Source of the DNA: a virus
Lineage: Duplodnaviria > Heunggongvirae > Uroviricota > Caudoviricetes
Reading direction: 5' to 3' (one strand)
IMG/VR virus record: IMGVR_UViG_3300022719_000284
Coordinates: 90,827 to 154,826 of that record
DNA length: 64,000 nt
Part shown: piece after piece, positions 7,276 through 64,000 of the stretch
Layout: every line of letters starts with the position of its first letter
Numbering within the stretch: position 1 is the first letter of the stretch
Program-made: the position numbers and the translations under genes
Notes under the pieces: model-generated
The model's input: the letters and a program-made list of their open reading frames with translations, nothing else
Databases searched by the model: none
What the model was told of the DNA's origin: nothing

Positions 7276-8414
7276 TGGGTTACTTACCTCCTGATTCAGA
7301 TGTTCCTGTAGCGCAATTAACTAAAGCAGGAAGAAGCCTTTTAGCTCGATCTATAGTTCCTAGATCTCAGCTTACTGGGTCAGAACCTGATCGTTCTTTG
7401 GTTACATTTCGTCTATCGGGGTTTGCCTTTGGTGATGGTGGCTACAGTCTAAGTTTACCGTTGGACGTAAACCCTATCAATGACACTACAGAACAAGCAA
7501 AAGCAACAGTTGCTGTACTAGATAATAGATTCGACGTAAATGATTCCTTAGTTATTAACGGTGTACCGTTTCCGGCAGGCATAGAAATTATAGCTTCTGG
7601 CGCAGCCAATGGTGGGACGGAGGCAGGTGGCCCTAATGGCGGTGGAACCCTTACAATATCTTCCGGATCCTTGGGTATTAATTCTTTCGTAGGGTCTAGG
7701 TTAAGGCTAACAGGGGGAACTCTTGCTGGGCTAGATGAAGTAATTATATCTAATGATAGTAACTCTTTCGAGATAGGAATTCCCCCCAACACAGGAAAAA
7801 CTTGGACCCAGGCTGGTGGAGGGGGAGCAACACCAGACATTACAACGCAGTGGCAGGTTATCACCAATAGCCCTGGTGGAGTAACTTGGGTTCCAGGCGA
7901 AAATGAAGAAGAAACAGCTCAAAATATAGCTGACGCAATAAATGCTTCAACTAATCCGTTGGTACAGAATGTCGTAAGGGCAACGGTAGAAAACGCTATA
8001 ATTACTGTCTCTGCGGTCGCTTCCGGAGATTTAGGTAATTTGAACACTTTGGTTGAATTCGATGAAGGAGGTTTAGCTGTAAATAATTTTGGAATTATTC
8101 CGGGAACAGGATTTTTAGATGGAGGGGCTAATCCAAATCTCGAAAACCCGGTATTTCCACCTGCTGCCCCTGGAACTATAGAAGATTTCTTAGATATAGA
8201 ATTCCCTAACCCTCAAGCTACTTCTCTTGTATGTAGGGCAGGGCAATCTGAAGGAAATTTTGGTCTTGGAGAGGTTGGTATTTACGTCGATATAATTGAT
8301 TCTGTAAACCCACAGGAAATAGGTAAACGAATATTGTACGCTATAGGGCATTTTCCAATAGTGTCAAAAAACTCTAAAAGTGTATTCGTAACGAGGGTTA
8401 TTACTCAATACTAA
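7275..8414 (+). CDS. tail-fibre-like protein (379 aa)
   Basis: ATGA overlap with the upstream gene. N-terminus 'VAQLTKAGRSLLARS...LTG' is gpH-like. C-terminal 'ILYAIGHFP' motif shared with 881..1318. Gly-rich beta composition. Confidence 0.5.
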   Translation: MGYLPPDSDVPVAQLTKAGRSLLARSIVPRSQLTGSEPDRSLVTFRLSGFAFGDGGYSLSLPLDVNPINDTTEQAKATVAVLDNRFDVNDSLVINGVPFPAGIEIIASGAANGGTEAGGPNGGGTLTISSGSLGINSFVGSRLRLTGGTLAGLDEVIISNDSNSFEIGIPPNTGKTWTQAGGGGATPDITTQWQVITNSPGGVTWVPGENEEETAQNIADAINASTNPLVQNVVRATVENAIITVSAVASGDLGNLNTLVEFDEGGLAVNNFGIIPGTGFLDGGANPNLENPVFPPAAPGTIEDFLDIEFPNPQATSLVCRAGQSEGNFGLGEVGIYVDIIDSVNPQEIGKRILYAIGHFPIVSKNSKSVFVTRVITQY

Positions 8415-21169: not shown

Positions 21170-21946
21170 ATGCGCTCTTTCATTATTTTGCTGATTGCTG
21201 TAGCGGGGATGGTCCTCGCATCACCGTCTTACGCCATTTTTGATGGCGGAGATGACAACTCCACCAATAGCACCGCCCAGGCTACTGGGGTAGGCGTGGG
21301 TGTTGCTGGTTCGGACGCAGCGGCGAATGCTGGTGTGTCTAAATCTGGCAATAGTGCCAATCTCAACAAGAACAAAAACACTGCTGTTTCTGGTTCCGGT
21401 GTTTTTGGGTCTGGTAATAGCAAGTCTACTGCTATTAACGGCCCGAACACCGCTGTTACTGGTCCATCTATTTCAGATGCCTCTGCTTTCTCGGGGGTTG
21501 ATTTCGAAGACGCCAGTTTCGGAAATAGCCGAAACGAAAACACCCTTGTAGGCAAGCAGAGTCAACATCAGGGGCAAAGTCAGAATCAAGGTCAGGTTAC
21601 TGACACAGATCAGAAGAATAAGCAGGAAACCGATCTAAGTGTAGATGCATCCGATAGGTCTACCACTCTAGTGCAGGATACTCGCGATCCTGTTGCTTCG
21701 GCTGCTCCTGTTTTTGCTTCTGCTTGTTCGGCTGGAGTTTCTGCCCAAAGCTACGGCTTTGGTGGTGCTCTAGCTAGTACCAATCCCATGTGTGATCTTG
21801 CCCTTGCGGTCGAGCTTGCTTTGAAGGTTGGTAACACCGAGCTTGCTAATGAGCTAACCGAGCGTGCGGCTTCTTTCTCTAAGAACCGCACGAACCCGGT
21901 TCGAGTATATGGCCAGTGGATTCCTTTCTTCGGACAGCTATTCTAG
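21170..21946 (+). CDS. secreted low-complexity Gly/Ser/Ala/Asn/Gln-rich protein with an N-terminal signal peptide (258 aa)
   Basis: 'MRSFIILLIAVAGMVLASPSYA' signal peptide. 'aggagaaagagATG' RBS. Locally higher GC than the flanks. Confidence 0.5.
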   Translation: MRSFIILLIAVAGMVLASPSYAIFDGGDDNSTNSTAQATGVGVGVAGSDAAANAGVSKSGNSANLNKNKNTAVSGSGVFGSGNSKSTAINGPNTAVTGPSISDASAFSGVDFEDASFGNSRNENTLVGKQSQHQGQSQNQGQVTDTDQKNKQETDLSVDASDRSTTLVQDTRDPVASAAPVFASACSAGVSAQSYGFGGALASTNPMCDLALAVELALKVGNTELANELTERAASFSKNRTNPVRVYGQWIPFFGQLF

Positions 21947-22008
21947 TAGCTATTGAGGAATGTTGGGGCGGGGTTTATCCCCGCCCCCTTGGACAAAAGG
22001 AGTCTACT

Positions 22009-22686
22009 ATGCAAAAAAATAGATCTGTTTTCTGGATTCTACTGATCGTAGCTTTCCTGCTTGCTTGGGGCGGCAAATCTACCGCTGATACCAAGGTTCA
22101 TGGTTTTAATATCCCAACGGCAGAAAGTTCCACGGATCCGCATATCGCGGTGTGCGGAGCTACCTCTTCTGGGACTATTGAGGGGGGAGTTCAAGGGCGT
22201 CTCGCTGATCGTCGCATGTCTGGTACAGACAGCCGAACGTATGGCGTAGCGTACTGCTTTCCTGCACAAAGAGTCTCCGGTCCTAGGGAAGTATCCGTAC
22301 CGGATCCGGTGACCGAAGCTATCGAAGTTGTAGAACACAAACTGGTAACCTTTTTTGATCACGACTCTGCGGATTTCTCAGATCTAAAAGCAGAGGAGGC
22401 AATTAAGGTTATTGTTGATTGGTTACGGACTACGCCAAGTGCTGGTCTCGTAGTCAAAGGGCATACGGATTCAACCGGAGATCCCGACTACAATATGGCT
22501 TTATCAGTTCAGCGTGCTGAAACTGTTAAAATGTTGTTTGTAGAAGCTGGAGTTTCACCCGATCGTATCAAATCTGTTGGATATGGTGAGACATCTCTAT
22601 TAGTAAATGTACTAGGGAGAAACCAAGAAAATCGCCGAGTTGAAATCGAAGTTTTCCAGATTGAAGAAGTTCTTGTTCAAGAGTAA
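22009..22686 (+). CDS. OmpA-family peptidoglycan-binding protein with a signal peptide (about 225 aa; ORF track starts at 21916)
   Basis: ATG at 22009 is preceded by 'aaaggag'. 'MQKNRSVFWILLIVAFLLAWGG' signal. C-terminal OmpA_C motifs 'GHTDSTGDPDYNMALSVQRAETV...NRRVEIEV'. Confidence 0.7.
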   Translation: MQKNRSVFWILLIVAFLLAWGGKSTADTKVHGFNIPTAESSTDPHIAVCGATSSGTIEGGVQGRLADRRMSGTDSRTYGVAYCFPAQRVSGPREVSVPDPVTEAIEVVEHKLVTFFDHDSADFSDLKAEEAIKVIVDWLRTTPSAGLVVKGHTDSTGDPDYNMALSVQRAETVKMLFVEAGVSPDRIKSVGYGETSLLVNVLGRNQENRRVEIEVFQIEEVLVQE

Positions 22687-22693
22687 AGGAAGT

Positions 22694-22730
22694 AAGGGAG
22701 GGGCTTAAATGCCCCTCCCTTAGGTTTTGG
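22694..22730 (+). terminator. rho-independent terminator: perfect 11-bp GC-rich stem (aagggaggggc / gcccctccctt), 6-nt loop, then 'aggttttgg'
   Basis: Read directly from the sequence, immediately after the OmpA-like gene stop. Confidence 0.6.
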
Positions 22731-22738
22731 AGACTACT

Positions 22739-23884
22739 TTGAAGAAAGTGCTCGTAACATCTTGCCCATCGCTTCACAATGTTGTTCAACTAGAACCTAC
22801 CCTAGAAGCGATATATTACGAACATTTTCCTTGCGAATTAACCCTCCGAACATGGGAAGGTTACATTCCATTTTTTGAAAACCATCCTTTGATAGAAAAT
22901 GTAATTACCAAAGACTCCAAAATCGATTTTATTCCCGAAGTAGAAATAATAGAAATATCAGATCTAGAATCGTGGGACGCACCAGTAGCAACTGTAGATA
23001 AATTTGCTATATCCGCCAAAGTACAACTTCTACGTAAAACTCCAAAGATTTTCTTAAACCCTTTCCCTCCCGATAGAAACATAGTTGTCCAAGCTGATGT
23101 CCCTCACTTGTTAGATTCTTGGCATTTTCCAAATAATATAAAATCTTTCAAAGAAATCCCGATTGTAAGGCTTGAGCAACCTAAAAACAATGATTATCTA
23201 AGACTTCAATTAACGGTTTTAGCTTCTTCAGCTTTGGTGGTAGGTCCTGACAGTTGGATGACTCAAGCGGCAGCAGCATTAGACGCCCGAGTAGTGATGG
23301 GCTTAGACTCTCCGCATAAAGAACCATTACGCGCCCCTATAAATGTTACTGTATCTAACAAAGATAAAGATAGCATTTTCAATACAGTGCAGGATGTTTT
23401 ATATGAAAAACGATATCCAGATTTTCTAAACTGCGGTAACGCGGCTGAATTCATAAAAAACAAAGCTAAGATGTACATGAAGTCAAATTTTATTGATGTG
23501 GGGTGCAGTAACTGGCCTATACCAAATGGAATTCCTGTTGATACGCACAATAGAGAAATTATAGAAAAAGCTCCTGATAATTATTTTTCAGGAGTTTTTT
23601 CCTCACATTGCTTAGAACACATCCGAGATTGGAAGAAAGAGTTAAAATTATGGCATAGGGTTACCAGAAATGGAGGATACATATTCATGTATCTACCTCA
23701 CCCCCGTGCAGAAGTTTGGCATGCTTTTACCGGATCCTGGGTAGGTGACAACCATGTCTGGAATCCAGAACCTGTTACTTTGGTAAAGTTCCTTAAAGAA
23801 GAATTAGGGATGAACATAATCGAATATACTTCTCGACGAGATTCTTTGTGGAGTTACTACATAATAGCGAGAAAATATGACTAG
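22739..23884 (+). CDS. GT9 (heptosyltransferase)-like domain fused to a C-terminal class-I SAM methyltransferase-like domain (about 381 aa; TTG start, ORF track starts at 22727)
   Basis: N-terminus 'KVLVTSCPSLHNVVQLEPTLEAIYYEHFP' is GT9-like and paralogous to 24358..25494. C-terminus 'FIDVGCSNWP...VFSSHCLEHI...NGGYIFMYLP' carries SAM-MTase motifs. GGAG sits 6 nt before the TTG at 22739. Confidence 0.5.
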   Translation: MKKVLVTSCPSLHNVVQLEPTLEAIYYEHFPCELTLRTWEGYIPFFENHPLIENVITKDSKIDFIPEVEIIEISDLESWDAPVATVDKFAISAKVQLLRKTPKIFLNPFPPDRNIVVQADVPHLLDSWHFPNNIKSFKEIPIVRLEQPKNNDYLRLQLTVLASSALVVGPDSWMTQAAAALDARVVMGLDSPHKEPLRAPINVTVSNKDKDSIFNTVQDVLYEKRYPDFLNCGNAAEFIKNKAKMYMKSNFIDVGCSNWPIPNGIPVDTHNREIIEKAPDNYFSGVFSSHCLEHIRDWKKELKLWHRVTRNGGYIFMYLPHPRAEVWHAFTGSWVGDNHVWNPEPVTLVKFLKEELGMNIIEYTSRRDSLWSYYIIARKYD

Positions 23885-23947
23885 AAATGGGTCGTTGCTG
23901 CTATTCCATAGAGGGACGAAACTTACAAGAAGCAGTGGAATTTTAAT

Positions 23948-24358
23948 ATGATGAAGAAAACCGATTCTGGGCCTTTGATAGAGACTGAGGCTTCTCCTGA
24001 GAAGAAACTGGAAGCTACTTCCGAAGAACAGGTTGATACCAGCGCGTGGGATAACATCATCGAGCTTATCCTAAATCTGGACCCTGATAAGTACGGTAAG
24101 CCTTTCTCCGATGTTGAGCTTCAGAAGATGTGTGAGATCGTCTCTGCGGGCAGGGGGAAATTTCCTAAGAAAGTCATCCCCTATGTGGAGCTTATGCGCA
24201 AGTTCCTTTTCGCAAACTATCAGCTCATCGCTTTGGCCGCTTTAGCTCACAAAACAGCCCAGGATAAATCCAAAGAAGAGAAACAGCTTGTCAAGCCGGC
24301 TAACTTCTCTGACCTGGGGAAGATAGAAGCCGAGAAGCTGAAGAATCAAGGTAGCTGA
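23948..24358 (+). CDS. hypothetical charged protein (136 aa)
   Basis: ORF between the two GT9-like paralogs; Lys/Glu-rich. Confidence 0.4.
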   Translation: MMKKTDSGPLIETEASPEKKLEATSEEQVDTSAWDNIIELILNLDPDKYGKPFSDVELQKMCEIVSAGRGKFPKKVIPYVELMRKFLFANYQLIALAALAHKTAQDKSKEEKQLVKPANFSDLGKIEAEKLKNQGS

Positions 24359-25494
24359 TGATGAACGTCACGAAGGTGCTAGTAACGAGATACGGCGGTG
24401 CCGGTGACATGATTATGATGGAACCGGTTTTAGAGGCATTGTACTACAAGTTCACGCCCGCAGAGATCCATCTTCGCACGCATTTCCACTACACAGATCT
24501 TCATGAGTTCCACCCCCTGATTCAAAATATTGTTCCGGGTGTTCTAACAGCCAATCCGCAAGAGATGGCCAAAGGCATTCTAAGCGACGAGAAGAAGCCT
24601 CAAGGGTTCGACTATTTCTATAACACAACCGGTAGCGTGGAAATGAACCGAGGCATACATGGTATAGATAGTTTTGCCTTTGCGTGCAGCGCAATCCCGT
24701 TCCGTAGAACCCCAGTGATGTATCTAGACCCCTCCGTCCCCGTAGAGTCCAGAGACATCGTGATCCATACCCCCAAAAAGACAGACAAGAGCCCACGAAA
24801 CAACGACTTCAGAACGTTCGGAGCGTCGGCTGTGACCAAGTTTTTAGACCAGCAAGGTATAAAGTATGATTCTATTGTCGATATTGGGTCTGAACCAGAG
24901 ACAGAAGACGCTCTACAAAATTTCGCCAGAACAATTGCCGGAGCCAAGCTGTTCATAGGCCCAGATTCGGCCGGGGCTCACATCGCCTCGGCGCTCAGCG
25001 TGCCAAGAATTGTAGCCGCATACACGGATTATTTCCCCGCAGGGATTAGAGCGTACCCAAACACTACAATCCCTGTTCGAGACAACAACATTGATGGCTT
25101 ACTGAGTGCCGTTGAAACAGCCTACACAAGCCTACACAAGCCTCTACCAGATCCTCTAGTATCCCTGCTCGTAAAATCACAGAAGTACGCTTACGGGAGA
25201 ACCTGCGGCCCCCAGGATAAGGCAAATCAGTCGGGTTACGATCTGATCCAAAGGCTCCAAATAACTTTTGAAGAAAACTGGAGACATGAGGTTTTTGATT
25301 TGATGGAAAGATTGTCCCCTAGGGGAATATTGTACTTGTACGAGAAGCACCCTAGGTTCGGTGGGACAGAAGATCCCATAATGATCGCTAAATATCTAAT
25401 CCAAACTTGTGGAATGGAAATTGTGGAATATTCTGCCACAGCAGACGAATATGGCCATTTTTTCGTCGAAGCTAGAAAGCTGGATCGTTCTTGA
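24358..25494 (+). CDS. GT9 (heptosyltransferase)-like glycosyltransferase, paralog of 22739..23884 (378 aa)
   Basis: 'KVLVTRYGGAGDMIMMEPVLEALYYKFTPAEIHL' is a GT9 N-terminal signature. C-terminus 'GMEIVEYSATADEYGHFFVEARKLD' is collinear with the paralog C-terminus. Confidence 0.5.
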   Translation: MMNVTKVLVTRYGGAGDMIMMEPVLEALYYKFTPAEIHLRTHFHYTDLHEFHPLIQNIVPGVLTANPQEMAKGILSDEKKPQGFDYFYNTTGSVEMNRGIHGIDSFAFACSAIPFRRTPVMYLDPSVPVESRDIVIHTPKKTDKSPRNNDFRTFGASAVTKFLDQQGIKYDSIVDIGSEPETEDALQNFARTIAGAKLFIGPDSAGAHIASALSVPRIVAAYTDYFPAGIRAYPNTTIPVRDNNIDGLLSAVETAYTSLHKPLPDPLVSLLVKSQKYAYGRTCGPQDKANQSGYDLIQRLQITFEENWRHEVFDLMERLSPRGILYLYEKHPRFGGTEDPIMIAKYLIQTCGMEIVEYSATADEYGHFFVEARKLDRS

Positions 25495-25529
25495 CAATCC
25501 ATATAACTTAAAACTCGGAGTATAAGATT

Positions 25530-25772
25530 TTGGAAACTGAATTAACTGGACCTTTTTCTAAATCTCGACAATGGCTTTTGAATTACCTATCAACAGCTAA
25601 ATTTAGAAATGAAATTATACAAGGGTCATTAAAAGCTGATTGGTCTGAGGTGGAGCACGCACGTGCCGCCTATTTACTGGGATGTCTTTGGGGGCGTTTG
25701 AGACAAGTAGATTCTTCCCTTGAGAATGCTACTGAATATGGAGCATTAGTAATAGAGGAGCTAAATGAATAA
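25530..25772 (+). CDS. hypothetical protein (80 aa)
   Basis: ORF with 4-nt overlap to the downstream oxygenase gene. Confidence 0.3.
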   Translation: METELTGPFSKSRQWLLNYLSTAKFRNEIIQGSLKADWSEVEHARAAYLLGCLWGRLRQVDSSLENATEYGALVIEELNE

Positions 25773-26404
25773 TGCAAGACTTCATAGTTTTAGACAATTG
25801 GCTTCCAATAGGGCAAGCAGAGGAAATTGCATCCAAAATTAGCAGAATACAAAATTGGGATGTTAGAATATGTGACAAAGACGGGGGCCCAAGAGTTGTA
25901 AAAAATGAGAGTCTCAAAAGTTTGGGAATAACAGCAGAGGAGTATGCTAAAGACTATCCAGAAAGTTTGGCCCAATTAGCCCGTGGCGGAACAATGGCTT
26001 ACTTGTTCTTTGTCAAACATCTTTCTGAATTTGACCCTATCCTTCTAAATTGGTTTAATACAGAATTCTTGTCTACGGCTAATATGATTACTGAACAAGA
26101 GAATAACTATACAGAAGAGCCCCAGGTAACTATGTATTCATCTGGGTGCTTTCTTGGGCAACATAGTGATGGAGTCGGCTCTAGGCAGGTTGCCTTTATT
26201 GCAAATTTCACACGCAATTGGCAACCTGATTTTGGTGGGTGTCTTACTATTCTTACACAAGGCAAGTGGCAGGTAATACCTCCAAAATTCAATTCGATTG
26301 TTTTTATGAATGTTAGATCAGCAAATTGTCACTATGTTAGTCAAGTTTCGAGCTGGGTACAAAACAACAGAACCGCCATTACAGGGTGGATAGGTAGAAG
26401 ATAA
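25772..26404 (+). CDS. 2-oxoglutarate/Fe(II)-dependent oxygenase superfamily protein (210 aa), possibly prolyl/lysyl-hydroxylase-like
   Basis: 'GQHSDGVGSRQVAFIANF...GGCLTIL...NCHYVSQV' fits the HxD...H facial triad in a double-stranded beta-helix context. Confidence 0.55.
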   Translation: MQDFIVLDNWLPIGQAEEIASKISRIQNWDVRICDKDGGPRVVKNESLKSLGITAEEYAKDYPESLAQLARGGTMAYLFFVKHLSEFDPILLNWFNTEFLSTANMITEQENNYTEEPQVTMYSSGCFLGQHSDGVGSRQVAFIANFTRNWQPDFGGCLTILTQGKWQVIPPKFNSIVFMNVRSANCHYVSQVSSWVQNNRTAITGWIGRR

Positions 26405-28641: not shown

Positions 28642-31185
28642 TTGAGCCTGCACTGGGAGAGTTTTGTGTCGGATACCCAGAAGTGCCCCCACTGTGGAAG
28701 TGATTCACTTCAAAAACGTGGACTTACCAGATCAGAAGAACCAAAGCAGCAATATGCTTGCAATGAATGTGGACGCTGGTCTTTAATATCTATAGTTGAA
28801 TTAAAAAGTGGTCCTGAATTCTTTCTTGATAAAAAGAAAGTAGCTGAGTTAGAACGTAAAGAAAGATATTTCATAACTAGCTCACAAAATAACACTCATA
28901 TAGACAGAAATTTCTGGAAAGCCATCAAACACTATACTAAGGAAAATGGCTCAGAACTTCTAATCCTCCCTATTCGTTACAAGAATCCTACATCTTACCT
29001 TCAGCCGCAAGATGATGACGATGCTGTATGGTGGCCTGAAGAAGTTCTAGATTATCTTGTTGAAAATAAGTTAAAAATACACCCAGAACTGTGGATTATG
29101 GGGAACATGAGAATCCAAGCCACAATGGTAAACCCCCTATCTGGTTTGGAGGGCATGAGCCAGTATGCTTCTGCTATCTACGGTCACGGGCAGCTTCAGA
29201 TGAAGACAGTCCCTACTCCGCAGAATGCTCTTCCTAAGATACTTCACACTACTGGATCGTGTAGTGTTAAAAATTATAGTAAAACCAAAGCAGGAGTTAA
29301 AGGTGAGTTTCACCACTCCAAAGCCGGACTAGTTGTGGAAAAGAAAGGAAAGAAATTCCACCTTAGACAAGTCATTTGGGATGGGGAATGCTTTTACGAT
29401 TTAGATAAAAAGTACACCGCCAATGGAGTTACAAGAAACCACAGAATAGATGCCTTAGTAACCGGTGACGAACACGTTCTATTTAACGATCCGGAAGTAA
29501 AAGCTGCTACATACACTGACAATGGTTCTATAGCTAACACATTAAAACCGAAAGTTATAGTCCGTCATGATGTTTTTGACGGATACAGTATATCTCACCA
29601 TCACAGAAACAATCCAGTTACTCAATACATAAAATGGAGAGAAAACATAAACAAAGTTGAAGATGAGTTGCAAGCCACTATAAACTTCATAGAAGAAACC
29701 ACCCCCCAAAATGCAACAAACATAATAGTTTCTTCAAACCATAATGAGCATCTGTATAGATGGTTAAGAGAAGTAGATTGGAAAGCAGAGCCATGGAATG
29801 CCAAAATATATCACTGGTTTTGGTATAATATGCTAAATGAAGCTGAATTTGGGGAGTCTGGAGCTTTTACTTTCGACCCATTCGCGTATTGGGCAGAACA
29901 GAACATGGACTCTAATTGCCCCATCAAATTCCTGGGGCGCGATGAGTCTTTCGTGGTAAACAAAATTGAGTTGTCTTTGCACGGAGACCTGGGTCCAAAT
30001 GGTAGCAGGGGTTCTGCGGTCAACCTGAACAAAATTGGTATTCGGTCTGTAATCGGGCATTGCCTTACAGGAGACCACGACGTACTAACGAGATCTGGAT
30101 GGAAAAGCATAGCCGATGTTCCTTCTGGAAGTGAAATTCTTACTACAAAAGATGGTCATAACATTTGGTCTAAAACAACAGAAAAACAAGAATATCTATA
30201 TAGCGGAAAATTAGTTAACTTAAACCATTTAGGGCAGACTGTTACGCCAAATCACAGGATGGCTATGTCGGACGGATCTTTAGTTCCTGTGTGTGAAGCT
30301 ATTATGACAAGGAAAGCTAACGAGGTACCTATTTCTGCCGCTCCTTGCTCTGAAGGTATAATCTCTATACCAGAAATGCCTTTGCGAAGACTTGTAGCTG
30401 CGTGTGCTGATGGCAGCTTTTACAAAAATAGTCTGTCTTTCAACCTAAAAAAGAATCGTAAGCACGAAAGGCTGAAGTTCTTGTTCGGTGATTCCCTTCG
30501 TGACAAAGGATCTGTCAAAGGCAACGGAGCAATTCGAAGAACAGTATCTATGGGTTCTGAACCCTACAAAGAAATCATCAAGTATATAAATCCAACCACA
30601 GAATGTAAAAGACTACCTCATTGGTTTATAGACTTATCGGAAGAATGCCGATCAATAGTCATTGACGAACTAGTATACTGGGATGGCACAGGAAGAGATT
30701 GCGAAGCAGGAAAACAGTTCTCGACTTCAAAAGAGGACGAAGCTAATATAGTTGCAGCTTTGTGTACTTTACAAGGATACCGTACAATCTTCTTAGAAAG
30801 GGTAGACCACGGACGCACAGAGTATTTGGTTACTTGGACACAAGGCGAGCCAGCACACAGCACTGATCAAGAGCATGACGAAGCGCGTATAGGAGCTTGG
30901 CAGGCAAATACTATAAATGTCGAGAATGAGGCCGTATATTGTTTCACAGTTCCCGAAACCCATTGTTTTTGGGTAAGGGACAAGAAAAAGGGAAAGGTCT
31001 CGTTAACTGGAAATTCCCACAGCCCTTGTATAGAAAAGGGCGTCGTGCAAGTAGGAACCAGCTCCTACCTGAAGCTGGAGTACAACCCAGGTCCCAGCTC
31101 GTGGATGAATTCTCATTGTGTTGTATATAAGAATGGAAAACGAGCCCTACTCAACGTACTCGACGGCGGAGAATGGCGCGGGTAG
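28642..31185 (+). CDS. N-terminal Zn-ribbon plus calcineurin-like metallophosphoesterase (Mre11/SbcD-like motifs), interrupted by an intein (847 aa precursor)
   Basis: 'CPHCGS...CNECG' Zn-ribbon. Phosphoesterase motifs 'VTGDEHV', 'SSNHNEH', 'LHGDLG', and 'IGH|...|SHS' (GHxH split by the intein). Confidence 0.65.
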   Translation: MSLHWESFVSDTQKCPHCGSDSLQKRGLTRSEEPKQQYACNECGRWSLISIVELKSGPEFFLDKKKVAELERKERYFITSSQNNTHIDRNFWKAIKHYTKENGSELLILPIRYKNPTSYLQPQDDDDAVWWPEEVLDYLVENKLKIHPELWIMGNMRIQATMVNPLSGLEGMSQYASAIYGHGQLQMKTVPTPQNALPKILHTTGSCSVKNYSKTKAGVKGEFHHSKAGLVVEKKGKKFHLRQVIWDGECFYDLDKKYTANGVTRNHRIDALVTGDEHVLFNDPEVKAATYTDNGSIANTLKPKVIVRHDVFDGYSISHHHRNNPVTQYIKWRENINKVEDELQATINFIEETTPQNATNIIVSSNHNEHLYRWLREVDWKAEPWNAKIYHWFWYNMLNEAEFGESGAFTFDPFAYWAEQNMDSNCPIKFLGRDESFVVNKIELSLHGDLGPNGSRGSAVNLNKIGIRSVIGHCLTGDHDVLTRSGWKSIADVPSGSEILTTKDGHNIWSKTTEKQEYLYSGKLVNLNHLGQTVTPNHRMAMSDGSLVPVCEAIMTRKANEVPISAAPCSEGIISIPEMPLRRLVAACADGSFYKNSLSFNLKKNRKHERLKFLFGDSLRDKGSVKGNGAIRRTVSMGSEPYKEIIKYINPTTECKRLPHWFIDLSEECRSIVIDELVYWDGTGRDCEAGKQFSTSKEDEANIVAALCTLQGYRTIFLERVDHGRTEYLVTWTQGEPAHSTDQEHDEARIGAWQANTINVENEAVYCFTVPETHCFWVRDKKKGKVSLTGNSHSPCIEKGVVQVGTSSYLKLEYNPGPSSWMNSHCVVYKNGKRALLNVLDGGEWRG
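30061..31014 (+). mobile_element. intein (about 318 aa) inserted in the GHxH phosphoesterase motif; likely contains a homing-endonuclease domain
   Basis: Block A 'CLTGDHDVLT'. Block B 'GQTVTPNHRM'. Block F 'VYCFTVPETHCFWV'. Block G '...LTGN' followed by a +1 Ser. The flanks rejoin as 'SVIGH-SHSPC', i.e. GHSH. Confidence 0.65.
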
Positions 31186-46038: not shown

Positions 46039-49613
<3,575 letters not shown>

Positions 49614-49614
<1 letters not shown>

Positions 49615-50177
49615 TAGATTCTCCAGTTAAGACGAGCAGCTATGCTCCCTAATCTAATCCATGTTATTTCTTCTGTTTTTGAGGAAAATCTAATCTTGTT
49701 AAAATTAAGTTCAATACCTTCAAATTCGTCAGAGCCGGAATAAGTCTTACCCTCTCCCGGATTCACATAGGCTATTGTTATATGAGGCTGATATTCAGGA
49801 AATTTATCTTCATTTTCTAAATTGTCTTTTAGTTTGTTGTGTATCCTATGTAGGTCTTTTGATTTGACATCTATTTTTACCACATCATAATCTTCATTCT
49901 CAAAAAGAGATATTTTCCCTAGAGTAGCTTTTATAGGGCTTTCACCTTGAAGAATTTTTCTCACAGGATCTGGATCTTCATCTACCAATCCGTAAAGAAC
50001 TGTGCAATGAATTGTATCTTCTCGACCCATAGAATCGTCTTCCGGGTCTTCATAAAGCTTGCTATCAGGTATATTTTTCTTGCCCCATTCTATAATATTT
50101 TTAGCGACATTCTCCGGTAAATTAACCTGAGTTGATGCATAGCTATAGTCTGCTGTCACGTCCCAGTTAAATACCAT
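49614..50177 (-). CDS. 2H phosphoesterase superfamily protein (LigT / 2',3'-cyclic phosphodiesterase-like; 187 aa)
   Basis: Two H-x-T/S-x motifs ('IHCTVLYG' and 'PHITIAYV') at the spacing typical of the 2H fold. Confidence 0.55.
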
Positions 50178-53074: not shown

Positions 53075-55921
53075 TTACGAAAGCTCTTCTTTAACCTTTT
53101 TCCAAACTACATCAACAGTATTAGCAGCCATACAGCTATTCAAAGTGTTTTTAGGATAGTCTTCTTGTGGAAGTGTAGTAGTTTCGTGAGAAACTAAATA
53201 AGGGCATGGAGGTTTGGGGTGAGCCGACATACTATTGTATTCTCGATAGCATGGTTGGCATTCCTTAGTAGGACCTTCATTGCCCATATTTCTAAACCAC
53301 GTAGAACCATTAACTAAATTGATATTTTGATCATACCCAGATCCACAAGGATGAGTAGATCCCCATACGATAATTGATCTCTTTCCCACAGCTTGAGAAG
53401 TATGGTTAAAAACAGAATCTCCTCCGATAAACAAAGCAGAGAATTTCTGTACAGCCGCAGCATGTTTAATTGATGGTGTATTTAACTTTATAGCACCAGG
53501 GATAGGTTTTTCGTTTTCCGACCCAATTTGTACAACTTCATAACCAAGTTCTTCTTTAATTTTTTGGACTAAGGACTCATACCAATTAAAGGGCCAATTC
53601 TTGAGAGGAGACCATCCCGCTGTAGTGTGTATAACTACCTTACCAGAGCCATGATTAGCTCCGTAATCAAGATGTTCTTGTGTCAATCCTATGCTGAGAT
53701 CCATAGAGGCAGCAACTCCAGCTTGCTCACAAAAGAAGGCAGCCAAGTGTTGTCTCATGGGTGCATCAGGATAACCCTGATGCATAGGGTACTGAAAAAG
53801 GACACTCTTTTCTGGGTTTTCCAGCTCCTGTGTAGCCTCCATTATTTTTTGATAATTATTCTCCGGTATAGCTACTACCTCATCTACAAATGGATTGTTT
53901 GAAATAGCATCCACAGAAGAAGGATGACAGATATATCGTACAAAATACCCCTGTTCTTTTAGACCTTTACAGGCAGCAGTAGACATGATAATGTCCCCCA
54001 GAGCACCAGGGCGACATACTTGTACAATTTTATTGTTAGGTTTTGGGGGTGTATTTGAGCCAGGAAACCTTAGGGCTCTTAGTTGGGCCAATCTAGATTC
54101 CCAAGATTTATCTGGGGCACCTATTTTTTCTGCCGCAAGTTCTCCATATGAAATGGCCTTTTCTATGTCCCCCAAATGCTCCCAACACCAACTGATCAAA
54201 CGCCAAGGCTGATCTTTATAGGCTCCAGTGTTCAAAAACATCAAAGTATTAGGTAGAGGGTTAGAGGCTGCATGTACAGCCCACGAAATTGCTTGCTTAA
54301 ACTTGTCTAAATCTCCGCTTTGTCTTCCTTCCTCGTATTTCATTCTAGCAATAGCCATGTATGGCTCGGCCCAATGGGAATTGGTTGCTATAGCTTGACA
54401 GAAGGCCCTGAAAGCTTGATCTTTTTGGTTTAAACTATGATGACAAAAGCCCTTATACATCCATGCCCAGAATCTTTCATCGTGCCATCCAAGATTTTTT
54501 ATAAGATATCTATCGTATCTTTCTAAGGCTTCTTCGTGGCGCCCAGACTCTCTTAACCCATTCCCAAGATAGAACAAGGTTCTACCTTCTCCATCGAACT
54601 CACCTGGGCATAGAGGGCAAGGTTGAGGCCCCTCGGCCTCGGCTTCTAATAGAATTTCAATATTTCTAGTCGAAGCATCTTTAGGTTTGGGTAAATGTGT
54701 TAACGTAATATCATCACATTTCAACTTCAGTGGACCATAACCGCCCAATTGAACATATTCATGACATTTATCGTGAAAGTGCGGTTTAAACACATTTCCA
54801 CGCCCATCATCTATAGACTCATTTTTCCATAATCTTAAATGGAAAAAAGTATCGCCACCGTATATTAGCCGCCAATCTTGAGGATTGTTTGGAAATTCTT
54901 CTAAAAGAGAAAGGATTTTCTCTGGAGAATCTGGAGAAAGAACATCATCGCAGTCCATCCAGGCAACATGGGTTCCTTCGCATGCCGTAATAGCTTCATT
55001 TTTAGCTCTAGCAAAGTTATTATCCCAATAACCATCTATAATTTTTGTACGAATGCCTGTTCTATTTCCAAATTCTTTGATTATTTTTGAAGTTCTATCT
55101 GTAGAGTTGTTAAGATAAACTACTACTTCCCAAGCTAAAGGAGCAATGCTGTTTAACATTCTACCAATAACTTCTTCTTCGTTACAAGAAATGACAGCAA
55201 AAGAAATTCTAATATCCTCTGCTAATCTTAACTGCCAATCTATTTGGCCAAGTTCTGACTGTTCCCATTCGTCAAAAACTCTAAATCCTTCTTTCTTGCA
55301 TAAGAGCTTAAAGGAATCCTTAGAAAATATGATGGGATGTACTTGATAATGTTCGTCTGTTAGATGAATAGGTAGACCCCTAGCCCCGACAACAGGAGTT
55401 CTAATATATACTACTCCCTTTTCTGTCAGAAGACTTTTTATCTTCTTCATCGCTTGCACAGGGTCAGAGAAATGCTCAATACAGTGAACCAAAGTTATCA
55501 AGTCAAACTTTTGGTCACCAAAATCATGTTCGAGAAAGTTTCCGACAACCATCGGAACGCCAAGCTCTTCCCCGTAAAATTCTGCCTCATCGCATCCATC
55601 TATACCTAGCTGAGTATCCACTCCTAAATCCTTGAAACATTTAAGGAAATAAGGATACTTTGATCCTATGTCTAGGACGCTTTTAGGTTTGTGATGCCAT
55701 GTTAATCGCTCTGCTAAATCTTTATTCAGTAGCTTAGCAATATCGTTCATAGCTTCACGGCCAGAGGATGGCTGAAGCTCAGATTCCCACATAAAGTTAG
55801 GAGGGGGGAATTGAGACCAAAGTCCACAATTATTGCAAGATAAGTAAGGAGTTCGACCAATACCGGGGACTTCAGTAGAAGTGAAATCTACACCCCCACA
55901 GACGGGACAAATGCTCTGCAT
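53075..55921 (-). CDS. multidomain modification enzyme (948 aa): Zn-ribbon, class-I SAM methyltransferase, GT2 (GT-A) glycosyltransferase, TPR repeats, GT9-like domain
   Basis: 'CPVCGG...CNNCG'. MTase motif I 'VLDIGSKYP' and 'DLITLVHCIEH'. GT2 'ISFAVISCNEEE...DCDDVLSP'. TPR-like helices. C-terminal 'IVQVCRPGALGDIIMSTAACKGL' is a GT9 signature. Confidence 0.65.
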   Translation of the reverse strand: MQSICPVCGGVDFTSTEVPGIGRTPYLSCNNCGLWSQFPPPNFMWESELQPSSGREAMNDIAKLLNKDLAERLTWHHKPKSVLDIGSKYPYFLKCFKDLGVDTQLGIDGCDEAEFYGEELGVPMVVGNFLEHDFGDQKFDLITLVHCIEHFSDPVQAMKKIKSLLTEKGVVYIRTPVVGARGLPIHLTDEHYQVHPIIFSKDSFKLLCKKEGFRVFDEWEQSELGQIDWQLRLAEDIRISFAVISCNEEEVIGRMLNSIAPLAWEVVVYLNNSTDRTSKIIKEFGNRTGIRTKIIDGYWDNNFARAKNEAITACEGTHVAWMDCDDVLSPDSPEKILSLLEEFPNNPQDWRLIYGGDTFFHLRLWKNESIDDGRGNVFKPHFHDKCHEYVQLGGYGPLKLKCDDITLTHLPKPKDASTRNIEILLEAEAEGPQPCPLCPGEFDGEGRTLFYLGNGLRESGRHEEALERYDRYLIKNLGWHDERFWAWMYKGFCHHSLNQKDQAFRAFCQAIATNSHWAEPYMAIARMKYEEGRQSGDLDKFKQAISWAVHAASNPLPNTLMFLNTGAYKDQPWRLISWCWEHLGDIEKAISYGELAAEKIGAPDKSWESRLAQLRALRFPGSNTPPKPNNKIVQVCRPGALGDIIMSTAACKGLKEQGYFVRYICHPSSVDAISNNPFVDEVVAIPENNYQKIMEATQELENPEKSVLFQYPMHQGYPDAPMRQHLAAFFCEQAGVAASMDLSIGLTQEHLDYGANHGSGKVVIHTTAGWSPLKNWPFNWYESLVQKIKEELGYEVVQIGSENEKPIPGAIKLNTPSIKHAAAVQKFSALFIGGDSVFNHTSQAVGKRSIIVWGSTHPCGSGYDQNINLVNGSTWFRNMGNEGPTKECQPCYREYNSMSAHPKPPCPYLVSHETTTLPQEDYPKNTLNSCMAANTVDVVWKKVKEELS

Positions 55922-56518: not shown

Positions 56519-58393
56519 TTACGAATCTATACCAAAATCTACAACCAAAATTTGCCCCTCGTTAAACTGAACGCCAGGATCAATTTCACGAGCCTGGATG
56601 GCAATTTCATGTGATTGATTGTTATCTAAAGATCCCATCCAGAAACATATGGAAGAATCGTTTTGTGTCGCTAAAGCATCTTTATTACCAGCTCCAGCTC
56701 CTAAGACTCCTAAGGTTAAAGCACTTCCTGTTGGGTTCAATCTAATTCTTTGTTCGTAACTCCAAGCACCATCAGCGTCTGCTTGGTAATTTCCTTGAAT
56801 TAAAATCAAAATAGTAGAAGTTGTTAGATTTGGTCTGGATACAAGATTGTTGAAATTTATAGAAAATACAGTGGAAAATGAACTACTCAATAGAAGGTTG
56901 GAAGTAGTTGATTGTAACACAAATCCATTTACTACACGGGGTGTACCATCCGTACTTAATACACTTGATACTTGTGACGCCCAATTTAAAGCGTCTGCTC
57001 CCCCTATATCATGTCGCGAAGCATGAGCATGAATATCCATGTCATCAGCAGAATTCTTTTGGAACCTAGTATTAGGATCTAGATCCACTTTTCTATTAGG
57101 GCGGAACGTAATTGAAGGACCACCATCTGGAACATGCTGAAGGAAAAAAGAGTTATCCGGTGGCTTACAAAGAAGCCATTGATCAAACCCCCTATCTGAG
57201 AACACCATATGAGAATGCTGTGGTGCAGAAAATCCGCTATCAAGTGTCAGGGTTGTGTCATTATCGGCATTGTTATCCACCCTTAACTCATCGCCTTGAA
57301 CTCTCGCTCCCCCAATAACGTGAAGTCTCTGCGCTGGGGAATTGGTTCCTATACCAACATTTCCTGAGCCCTGAATAAACAAGGAAGAGGTAGGAGCATT
57401 TCCTTGAACCGTTATTGGGGTATTTCCAGTAACCTGATTAGATATAGAGAAAACACCAGCAGAACTTTTTCCAACTCTCCATACTGGGGTTCCTCTATCA
57501 GCAAAATCTATCATACTTTGCTGAGCAGTAGTGTCTCCAGAATTTATTTCAATTATTAGTGCCGAGTTAACGGAATTTTCAAAAGTTCTACTACCATCAA
57601 CTAGCACATAATGGAGATGGTCATCATCCCCTAAACCACTTAGTTGGTCGTGTACTGAAACGGGCCCAGTGGGACCAGTGGGTCCGGTAGTACCGGCTCC
57701 GGTGGCCCCCGTAGGCCCACCAGCGGGGCCCACAGAACCGGTTTCTCCCTGCTTTCCAGTCTCCCCTTGCTGGCCTTGATTACCAGTTACACCCTGAATT
57801 CCTTGATTTCCTTGGGGCCCTTGAGGCCCTGTTATTCCAGTTGAACCTGGTACACCTTGAGGTCCTGTTGGGCCTGTCCCCCCAGTAGCGCCACTAGTAG
57901 CACCTGTAGGGCCAGTTATCCCTATTCCTGTTGGACCAATAGAACCTGTTAAACCAACACCTCCCTGAGACCCTGTTGGGCCGGAATTACCTTTAACACC
58001 TTGAATCCCAGTTGGTCCTGTGCTACCCTTAGGTCCTGTTAATCCTATTCCTTGGGGACCGGGAGCACCAGTTACCCCTGTTGGACCTGTTATAGATTTA
58101 CCTTGGATACCAAGGGGACCTTGAGGCCCCTGTAAACCAGTGGGTCCTGTAGAACCTTTAAGACCAACCCCTCCTGTTGGTCCAGTAGAACCAGTAGAAC
58201 CAGTAGAACCGCTTGGACCTGGAACAGCTACAGGAGTAATACCAGTAGGACCAGTAGGGCCAGTAGGACCAACGCCAATAGGCGCTGTTGCACCCTGAGG
58301 CCCAGCAGGCCCAGTTATCCCTGTACCGGTGGAGCCAGTTTCCCCAGTGGGTCCGGTAGGTCCTGTGAATCCTGTAGGTCCAATTTGAGACAT
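56519..58393 (-). CDS. collagen-like fibre protein (624 aa)
   Basis: N-terminal Gly-X-Thr/Pro/Gln tract of about 240 aa (nt about 57665..58385), followed by '[15 protein letters not shown]' and a beta-rich C-terminal domain. Confidence 0.8.

Positions 58394-58421: not shown

Positions 58422-60682
<2,261 letters not shown>

Positions 60683-60683
<1 letters not shown>

Positions 60684-61040: not shown

Positions 61041-64000
<2,960 letters not shown>

Follow-up and report, generated by a model that had tools for sequence, protein, structure and literature searches.

The DNA analysed here is a stretch of 64,000 nucleotides (the window) from a virus of the Caudoviricetes, corresponding to positions 90,827 to 154,826 of IMG/VR virus record IMGVR_UViG_3300022719_000284. 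The region of interest consists of five co-directional open reading frames (ORFs) on the + strand, three of which are designated A, B and C. A and B are paralogous proteins, in which a domain related to glycosyltransferase (GT) family 9 (GT9) is followed by a methyltransferase-like domain, while C is a 2-oxoglutarate (2OG)/Fe(II) oxygenase. Our analysis makes it probable that A and B function in glycan synthesis plus sugar methylation. For the system as a whole we tentatively favour a scheme in which A and B, together with an enzyme of 948 amino acids (aa) encoded elsewhere in the window, build a methylated glycan, the collagen-like fibres of the phage being the likeliest acceptor and C standing apart from this pathway. 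An earlier reading, made from the sequence alone and without database searches (the sequence-only reading), had described these ORFs, all of which are indeed present on the + strand, and had joined A, B and C in a single toolkit for fibre modification.

A (22727-23884, + strand; 385 aa, TTG start) and B (24358-25494, + strand; 378 aa) are paralogous end to end (BLASTP E 7e-25, 23% identity). A database protein identical to A, P0023, begins 7 codons downstream and comprises 378 aa. A is composed of a shortened GT9-like GT-B domain (residues ~1-230) and an intact class I S-adenosylmethionine (SAM) methyltransferase domain (~231-385), and both domains were resolved in an AlphaFold2 model of A (33 homologs; mean predicted local distance difference test score (pLDDT) 89.3, predicted template modelling score 0.89). 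The GT domain exhibits the GT-B fold with two Rossmann-like domains; the most similar structures belong to GT9, the lipopolysaccharide (LPS) heptosyltransferases WaaC and WaaF being the nearest relatives. The methyltransferase domain is of the Rossmann type; its motif I is rich in Gly, and strand 2 ends with an acidic residue. In the Pfam scan, GT9 (PF01075) was detected in B only, over a stretch of 50 residues (186-235; 24.1 bits vs a cut-off of 22), with no PF01075 match in A, and Methyltransf_11 was detected in A only (residues 282-320; 28 bits vs a cut-off of 21.2). The earlier domain calls, i.e. a GT9-like pair with SAM-methyltransferase motifs in one copy, are thus correct according to the model of A, the Pfam matches and the alignments.

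The two paralogs have kept different motifs. B-type proteins retain the GT9 motifs GGAGD (D17) and GPDSAGAH (D203), which by alignment correspond to D13 and D261/H266 of WaaC; we take WaaC D13 to be the catalytic Asp near the N-terminus and D261 to be the donor-site Asp. Their methyltransferase-like domain is vestigial, SAM motif I being deleted and FSSHCLEH lost, and B carries an insertion of ~30 aa in its N-terminal half. A displays the methyltransferase motifs DVGCSxWP, IPVD and FSSHCLEH, and the core formed by D257, G259, S261, W263, P264, FSSHCLEH and LPHP is invariant among A-type proteins. Here, the GT motif is changed to GPDSWxTQ with D175 kept, and the A protein of the window has Asn18 at the position matching WaaC Asp13, where 30 of 33 orthologs have Asp. 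Two single-copy distant relatives, P0074 and a gene of the phage contig L011, carry both motif sets and, judged by these motifs, represent the unduplicated state. The complementary retention of motifs in A and B is what subfunctionalisation after duplication would produce, making the pair a clean example of this process, and it suggests that A and B act jointly.

Which reactions the pair may catalyze is indicated by the family to which the methyltransferase domain belongs. Searching 1.84 billion representative proteins with a profile yielded 1374 matches, most of which cover the methyltransferase domain only, either as stand-alone proteins (150-250 aa) or within large proteins; the family further comprises 488 IMG/VR loci and 265 reference-genome loci. 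The FSSHCLEH-type stand-alone methyltransferases, mostly 160-250 aa in size, appear to form a large and essentially uncharacterised family present in phages and diverse bacteria, including Nitrospira, Hydrogenedentota, Opitutaceae and others. When large relatives were scanned with Pfam, 8 out of 10 had the methyltransferase fused to GT2, GT9 or GT4/GT1 domains. In the vicinity of 25 distinct stand-alone viral homologs we found genes for Methyltransf_24/23, FkbM, TylF, RmlD/epimerase, GDP-mannose 4,6-dehydratase, a GT9+GT2 fusion and GT10, and also structural genes (head-completion, tail-completion, HK97-gp10-like, portal). These fusions and sugar-gene neighbours argue that the methyltransferase of A is a sugar methyltransferase of glycan pathways, often encoded beside morphogenesis genes, and therefore that A and B are glycan-building enzymes. 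The full-length fusion has a narrower distribution: when 185,579 representative genomes of bacteria and archaea were scanned, the best 80 of the 265 loci matched A over its methyltransferase domain alone, save for one partial match in Nitrospira (A residues 103-383), and nearly all were stand-alone methyltransferase domains in diverse metagenome-assembled genomes. The full-length relative P0074 resides on a contig of 5.5 kb, perhaps bacterial, together with another methyltransferase and a major facilitator superfamily transporter, a context that is uninformative. Apart from these two cases the fusion of GT9 and methyltransferase domains appears largely confined to phages, as far as the searched sequences tell.

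The third component of the putative pathway, which the sequence-only reading did not mention, is the 948-aa enzyme encoded within the fibre gene cluster at 53075-55921 (- strand). Pfam assigns to it a methyltransferase domain (residues 64-215), a GT2 domain (240-383), tetratricopeptide repeats (TPR; 448-513) and a GT9 domain (704-859). TPR repeats are protein-binding modules. In the window, collagen-like fibre genes border this gene on both sides; its orthologs exhibit 69-76% identity, and an identical copy is present on a 210-kb contig. A gene of the 948-type lies amid (Gly-X-Thr)n fibre genes in five out of five relative contigs (the 184-, 266-, 187- and 78-kb contigs and a near-identical strain), making its product the best positional candidate for fibre modification. 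A recent origin of its GT9 and methyltransferase domains from the A/B family was considered and dismissed, as BLASTP yielded E-values of only 8e-4 and 0.04.

That A, B and the 948-aa enzyme form one pathway is suggested chiefly by operon linkage in a separate clade of jumbo phages (L011-L016, including a 313-kb contig). These phages possess a single A/B-type gene, whose product is 31-33% identical to A. This GT9-methyltransferase gene opens a contiguous block on one strand, in which the genes for an FkbM/RfbT-like methyltransferase, for a protein of 194 aa and for a 948-type homolog come next in this order, the last being full-length (28% identity over 944 residues). The arrangement persists in versions whose mutual identity is 100%, 81% and 60%. 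On this basis we lean, by a narrow margin, towards a functional link between A/B and the 948-aa enzyme.

As to the acceptor, four large ORFs on the minus strand contain 177-651 residues in Gly-X-Y runs and a fifth ORF has a short run, so that the predicted presence of at least four very large collagen-like fibre proteins proved to be real. The candidate acceptors are a fibre of 1191 aa (46039-49614) with 651 residues in Gly-X-Y runs, where Thr fills 174 of 217 Y positions, a fibre of 624 aa (56519-58393) with 177 such residues, a fibre of 753 aa (58422-60683) with a C-terminus of the tail-collar type, and a fibre of 882 aa (61041-63689) with 420 such residues. Thr occupies 65-69% of the Y positions in the fibres, the value for those of the window being 68%, and the triplets GPT and GST dominate. 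In Clostridioides difficile, the GPT repeats of BclA3 are O-GlcNAcylated by SgtA, whose gene is located directly upstream of bclA3 (PMC7157674). One fibre of the near-identical strain gives a faint match to BclA_C. Since in this lineage the 948-type gene always resides among (Gly-X-Thr)n fibre genes, O-glycosylation of the fibres on Thr, in analogy to BclA, is our best guess and the best-supported proposal for the acceptor, although one we would put at somewhat below even. Of the link between the GT/methyltransferase pair and the fibres that had been suggested earlier, there is accordingly indirect support, from the operon of the L011-L016 clade and from the location of the 948-type gene, while the link itself is unproven.

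A and B are two-domain enzymes that diverged after duplication; in each, a compact GT9-like GT-B domain precedes one resembling class I SAM methyltransferases. In the scheme we favour, they would work together, possibly as a heterodimer with the product of the conserved 136-aa ORF located between them (23948-24358, + strand), which may be a partner of both. B would transfer the sugar from a nucleotide-sugar donor and A would O-methylate a sugar, and the methylated glycan would be built by both proteins with the methyltransferase-GT2-TPR-GT9 enzyme of 948 aa. Thr residues of the phage's own (Gly-X-Thr)n fibres would thereby be O-glycosylated in the cytoplasm, before assembly. BclA/BclA3 on the spores of Bacillus and Clostridioides and the glycosylated mycobacteriophage virions serve as precedents.

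Several observations weigh against this scheme. The GT activity of A itself appears doubtful, as Asn replaces the presumed catalytic Asp. A and B are encoded ~27 kb away from the fibre cluster and on the other strand, amid replication and nucleotide-metabolism genes, a position more typical of DNA-modifying or host-takeover genes. Linkage to a 948-type gene in an operon was seen in one other clade only. Further, the idea that 948-type enzymes are always encoded beside collagen-like genes had to be abandoned: homologs with 33-47% identity in three other phage contigs adjoin packaging, portal or replication genes, and the enzyme family is therefore not specific to collagen-like fibres. No genes for sugar-nucleotide synthesis were found within the window. 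Finally, GT9 enzymes are classically LPS heptosyltransferases.

The last point leads to the host envelope as an alternative target. In this case the host LPS core, the O-antigen or another surface glycan would receive sugars and have them methylated at the cytoplasmic face through A, B and, perhaps, the 948-aa enzyme, to block superinfection or to change the cell surface during infection. WaaC and WaaF are the closest structures, and the only NCBIfam matches obtained for B are heptosyltransferases I, III and RfaQ. Yet the best of these reaches 25.6 bits, far under the equivalog cut-off of 170.2, and A has no match to the LPS heptosyltransferase equivalogs TIGR02193/02195/02201. The GT domain is also shortened, ~210 residues being aligned out of 320-340. 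Both GT domains are acidic, with isoelectric points of 5.3 (A) and 5.9 (B), which is weak evidence against anionic lipid A, and likewise DNA, as acceptor, and no segment for membrane association is evident. The cassette of the window follows genes for a phage secreted protein and an OmpA-like protein, but A and B persist in relatives that lack these two genes. The FkbM/RfbT-like methyltransferase of the L011 operon resembles O-antigen methyltransferases; the linked 948-aa enzyme, in contrast, has TPR repeats and is encoded in the fibre cluster. Sets of glycosyltransferases in cyanophages are usually interpreted as modifiers of the host surface (PMC12801897). Weighing both sides, we consider envelope remodelling rather unlikely, though plausible and the strongest competitor of fibre glycosylation.

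The genomic position of the cassette calls for consideration of a third target, namely phage DNA. Homologs of A (45-67% identity) and C (55-75%) were obtained from metagenomic contigs only, and these relatives are uncultured phages of ~185-270 kb, including contigs of 184, 187 and 266 kb. Neither the region nor B, used as queries at DNA and protein level, gave a match in the INPHARED phage collection, and the polymerase found counterparts there in jumbo phages and Bacillus phage SP-10 only (25-28% identity); hence, there is no cultured relative from which annotation could be transferred. Every relative has the gene order PolA, deoxyribosyltransferase, ThyX, (GyrB), (secreted, OmpA), A, small ORFs, B, small ORFs, (C), vWA, PIF1. 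The genes for A, the 136-aa ORF, B and an 80-aa ORF (25530-25772, + strand) are present in every relative whose locus covers the cassette, the conserved 80-aa ORF being kept even in relatives without C. Using tblastn, the 136-aa ORF was detected with 40-57% identity in L001-L008 and L010 but not in L009, where the locus stops soon after the A gene; Pfam, PHROG and NCBIfam gave no match for it, and it resembles no known domain. The composition of the region, including its GC content, is unremarkable within the window. The term accessory island, which had been applied to the region, is therefore inappropriate: the cassette is part of the replication module, with A-B as its core and C as a variable gene at a variable spot.

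Phage GT-B DNA glycosyltransferases are often encoded near thymidylate-synthase-like and DNA-synthesis genes, and the cassette is located 2-3 kb downstream of the genes for PolA, nucleoside deoxyribosyltransferase and ThyX and upstream of the gene for a PIF1/Dda-like helicase. Moreover, in one relative (L004) a gene for an N6/N4 DNA methyltransferase is inserted between those for A and B, and phage GT-B enzymes that heptosylate 5-hydroxymethylcytosine exist (bioRxiv 10.1101/2023.12.21.572611). A and B could accordingly glycosylate a modified base of the phage DNA and methylate its sugar, with evasion of restriction as the outcome. Against this stand the association of A's methyltransferase family with sugar-pathway genes and GT fusions, the acidic GT domains, the operon that joins an A/B-type gene to a TPR-containing multi-GT enzyme, and the absence of a hydroxymethylase or TET-type enzyme. 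DNA hypermodification is therefore very improbable.

The nature of the oxygenase C (25772-26404, + strand; 210 aa) was inspected separately. Pfam detects 2OG-FeII_Oxy_4 (E 6e-19) and Oxy_3, and the residues H131, D133, H187 and R200 are invariant in 20 homologs of C, leaving the HxD...H iron triad intact together with a basic residue for 2OG binding and confirming its earlier classification as a 2OG oxygenase. A model of C shows a double-stranded beta-helix (DSBH) fold (pLDDT 79), in which the loop 123-132 is poorly defined (pLDDT <50). By profile, the nearest solved structures are OGFOD1 (E 5.8e-9) and Tpa1 (1.3e-6), with PHD2 matching weakly; the viral model that matches best is a Tpa1/Ofd1-like protein, with many 2OG oxygenases of cyanophages coming next. 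An AlkB-like or otherwise nucleic-acid-directed fold, which had been named as an outcome that would contradict a role in fibre modification, was looked for: AlkB and TET/JBP enzymes are not the closest to C, neither by fold nor by sequence. C is also nearer to OGFOD1 and Tpa1 than to collagen prolyl 4-hydroxylase (P4H) or PLOD, the enzymes proposed for comparison. By its residues, C is an active-looking hydroxylase of the OGFOD1/Tpa1/PHD-type, and its substrate is probably a prolyl residue in a protein of the host or the phage.

According to the sequence-only reading, A, B and C would constitute one pathway in which the collagen-like fibres are first hydroxylated by C at Pro or Lys and then glycosylated at the hydroxylated residue, in analogy to mimivirus L230 or the processing of animal collagen. 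The three genes are indeed close together. However, two of the six relative lineages compared, L005 (187-kb contig) and L008 (266-kb contig), lack C but keep A, B, the 948-aa enzyme and abundant fibres, indicating that the glycosylation pathway need not include C and that the three genes cannot be regarded as one unit. When two invariant peptides of C were scanned in IMG/VR, they were found on the 184-kb contig only, the whole 266-kb contig being devoid of C. The genes for C, the OmpA-like protein and the secreted protein co-vary: the window, L001, L004 and L006 have all three, and L005 and L008 have none. This co-variation may just reflect clade structure.

The composition of the fibres speaks against the combined pathway as well. 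In the window, Pro accounts for 26% of the X and 6% of the Y positions and Lys for ~1.6% of the Y positions (0.3-1.7% of triplets over the genomes), and due to little Pro and scarce Lys at Y the fibres are poor substrates for prolyl-4 or lysyl hydroxylation of the collagen type. We also asked whether the presence of C tracks the Pro content at Y, and discarded this idea: the values are alike with C (6.0% and 6.1%) and without C (4.6% and 6.6%; two genomes each). Pro at X is somewhat more common where C is present (26% and 21%) than where it is absent (11% and 17%), a comparison of two versus two genomes that cannot carry weight. Taking into account that the nearest relatives of C, OGFOD1 and Tpa1, are ribosomal-protein hydroxylases rather than collagen P4H or PLOD, and that similar small 2OG oxygenases are common in cyanophages, a joint hydroxylation-glycosylation pathway is improbable. 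We treat C as an independent and optional protein-hydroxylase-like gene; a 2OG oxygenase encoded beside glycosyltransferases in a collagen-rich phage is not automatically a collagen hydroxylase.

Alternatively, C on its own could be a prolyl hydroxylase for host takeover, acting independently of A and B on the translation machinery (EF-Tu as does PPHD, or uS12 as do OGFOD1/Tpa1) or on another phage or host protein. This would agree with OGFOD1 and Tpa1 as closest solved relatives, with the Tpa1/Ofd1-like protein as best viral match and with the gain or loss of C independently of A/B. On the other hand, the fold scores to sugar-acting or small-molecule oxygenases follow close behind (HygX 12.6, AviO1 12.0), and the low confidence of the model concerns the active-site loop 123-132. 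Overall, this specific role is unlikely for C, albeit less so than participation in a collagen-type pathway.

Comparison with known systems delineates what is particular to the proposed A/B pathway. TibC and Aah are GT9-type protein heptosyltransferases of bacterial autotransporters. In comparison to these enzymes and to WaaC/WaaF/WaaQ, the domain of A/B is much shorter, ~210 residues being aligned out of 320-380; unlike GT9 heptosyltransferases it is fused to a methyltransferase-like domain, and Pfam recognizes 50 residues in B and none in A. A similar logic, i.e. multi-domain GTs combined with a methyltransferase, is known from A064R of chlorovirus PBCV-1 (listed together with A061L), a GT-GT-methyltransferase protein in which the class I SAM methyltransferase at the C-terminus adds an O-methyl group to the terminal sugar of the virion glycan (PMC9614988). 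The likeness is one of logic; A064R employs GT-A and a novel GT domain instead of GT9 and acts on N-linked glycans of the capsid protein of a eukaryotic virus. Among bacteriophages, mycobacteriophage Corndog encodes one O-methyltransferase and three glycosyltransferases (gp35-38), which are believed to decorate virion proteins (PMC4351075), and mycobacteriophage virion glycosylation was demonstrated by Freeman et al. 2023, according to the passage citing that work in PMC12801897. Such clusters likewise combine virus-encoded GTs with a sugar methyltransferase, represented here by GT9, GT2 and methyltransferase domains, but they involve other enzyme families, actinobacterial hosts and capsid or tail-tube targets. 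In addition, the modification genes of Corndog (Cluster O) are located inside the structural operon, whereas A/B are part of the replication module.

BclA and BclA3-SgtA resemble the proposed system in the O-glycosylation of Thr in (Gly-Pro-Thr)n repeats and in the location of the GT gene beside the collagen-like gene (PMC7157674), comparable to the 948-type gene among the Gly-X-Thr fibre genes. They differ in that SgtA is a single O-GlcNAc transferase of the GT-A type from a Gram-positive spore former, and in that glycosylation of the fibres is here deduced from gene context. C shares the DSBH fold and the HxD...H...R residues with OGFOD1/Tpa1/Ofd1, PHD/PPHD and cyanophage 2OG oxygenases, which provide its best matches in sequence and fold. 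It lacks the second DSBH domain of OGFOD1/Tpa1, being a single-domain protein of 210 aa with its own conserved N-terminal 110 residues and 15-21% identity. Mimivirus L230, a collagen lysyl hydroxylase and glucosyltransferase, and vCPH of PBCV-1 are weaker matches than the PHD/OGFOD1 enzymes. In contrast to these viral systems, the fibres considered here are nearly devoid of Lys and have little Pro at Y, and C is not fused to a GT and is dispensable in relatives. Collagen P4H, PLOD and L230 go along with X-Pro-Gly or X-Lys-Gly substrates and co-occurrence of enzyme and substrate, while in the present case genomes without C keep the fibres with the same Pro content at Y.

Modification of phage virions as such is not new, given the mycobacteriophage precedents (PMC4351075; Freeman et al. 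2023 in the portion of PMC12801897 that cites it). While virus-encoded glycosylation machinery is already known, the subfunctionalised pair of GT9-methyltransferase paralogs is new. In its fullest version the hypothesis would state that this phage lineage, which probably infects diderm bacteria, decorates its own (Gly-X-Thr)n tail fibres by O-glycosylation and sugar methylation by means of a heteromeric GT9-methyltransferase pair and the 948-aa enzyme, and that C, where present, optionally hydroxylates Pro at X; as a whole, this is rather unlikely to be right in every part. If true, it would be a phage counterpart of the glycosylation of BclA in the exosporium that uses GT9-type protein glycosyltransferases. 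Glycosylated fibres would extend virion glycosylation from the capsids and tails of mycobacteriophages to collagen-like receptor-binding fibres of large environmental phages, with bearing on host recognition, evasion of immunity and defence, and fibre stability.

Additional genes were noticed in and around the fibre cluster. Comparison of positions 1-4890 of contig L175 with 61041-63689 of the window reveals strains with an identical 948-aa enzyme but other distal fibre genes: in L175 the 882-aa fibre gives way to a 1189-aa ORF plus a collagen-like protein that faintly matches BclA_C, which suggests that fibre cassettes are exchanged between strains. In L177, a relative without C, a sulfotransferase gene (PF00685; 21126-21923 of GCA_004196315.1 SDBT01000019.1) adjoins a 1542-aa ORF of the fibre region, adding a further candidate for a modifying enzyme to this cluster. 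In window numbering, the gene immediately downstream of the largest fibre gene (49614-50177, - strand) codes for a 187-aa 2H-phosphoesterase matching the Pfam families Acb1 (anti-CBASS; E 2e-10) and 2'-5' RNA ligase, which is kept in L175, L176 and L177.

The cassette is preceded by genes for PolA, a 163-aa ORF, ThyX, a secreted Gly/Ser/Asn-rich protein and an OmpA-like protein, the last two being located at 21170-22686 (+ strand) between ThyX and A; the syntenic counterpart of the 163-aa ORF in relatives is a nucleoside deoxyribosyltransferase. Downstream of C follow genes for a vWA protein, the PIF1/Dda-like helicase and a homolog of the 'DNA transfer protein' family. PHROGs gave no useful hint on A, B or the small ORFs, nor on the genes surrounding the 948-aa enzyme or the neighbours in L011. 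A scan of the region for promoters and terminators remained at background level, except for a single strong palindrome at 22693-22722 between the OmpA-like gene and A, a hairpin with a perfect 12-bp stem comprising 8 G-C pairs. It is probably a transcript boundary or a (bidirectional) terminator, which divides the variable OmpA cassette from the A-B cassette.

The 847-aa homolog of PHROG 1745 ('DNA transfer protein'; 28642-31185, + strand) is interrupted at about residue 474 by a segment starting with CLTGDHDV, which may be an intein; Pfam gave no intein match in this protein. Judging from their sequences, the module varies among relatives by mobile insertions. The N6/N4 DNA methyltransferase gene of L004 occupies positions 7497-8069 between A and B, and ThyX is interrupted by an intein with HNH in L006 (5857-7656) and L007. 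Finally, PolA of L004, L005 and L007 possesses an N-terminal domain resembling uracil-DNA glycosylase (UDG).

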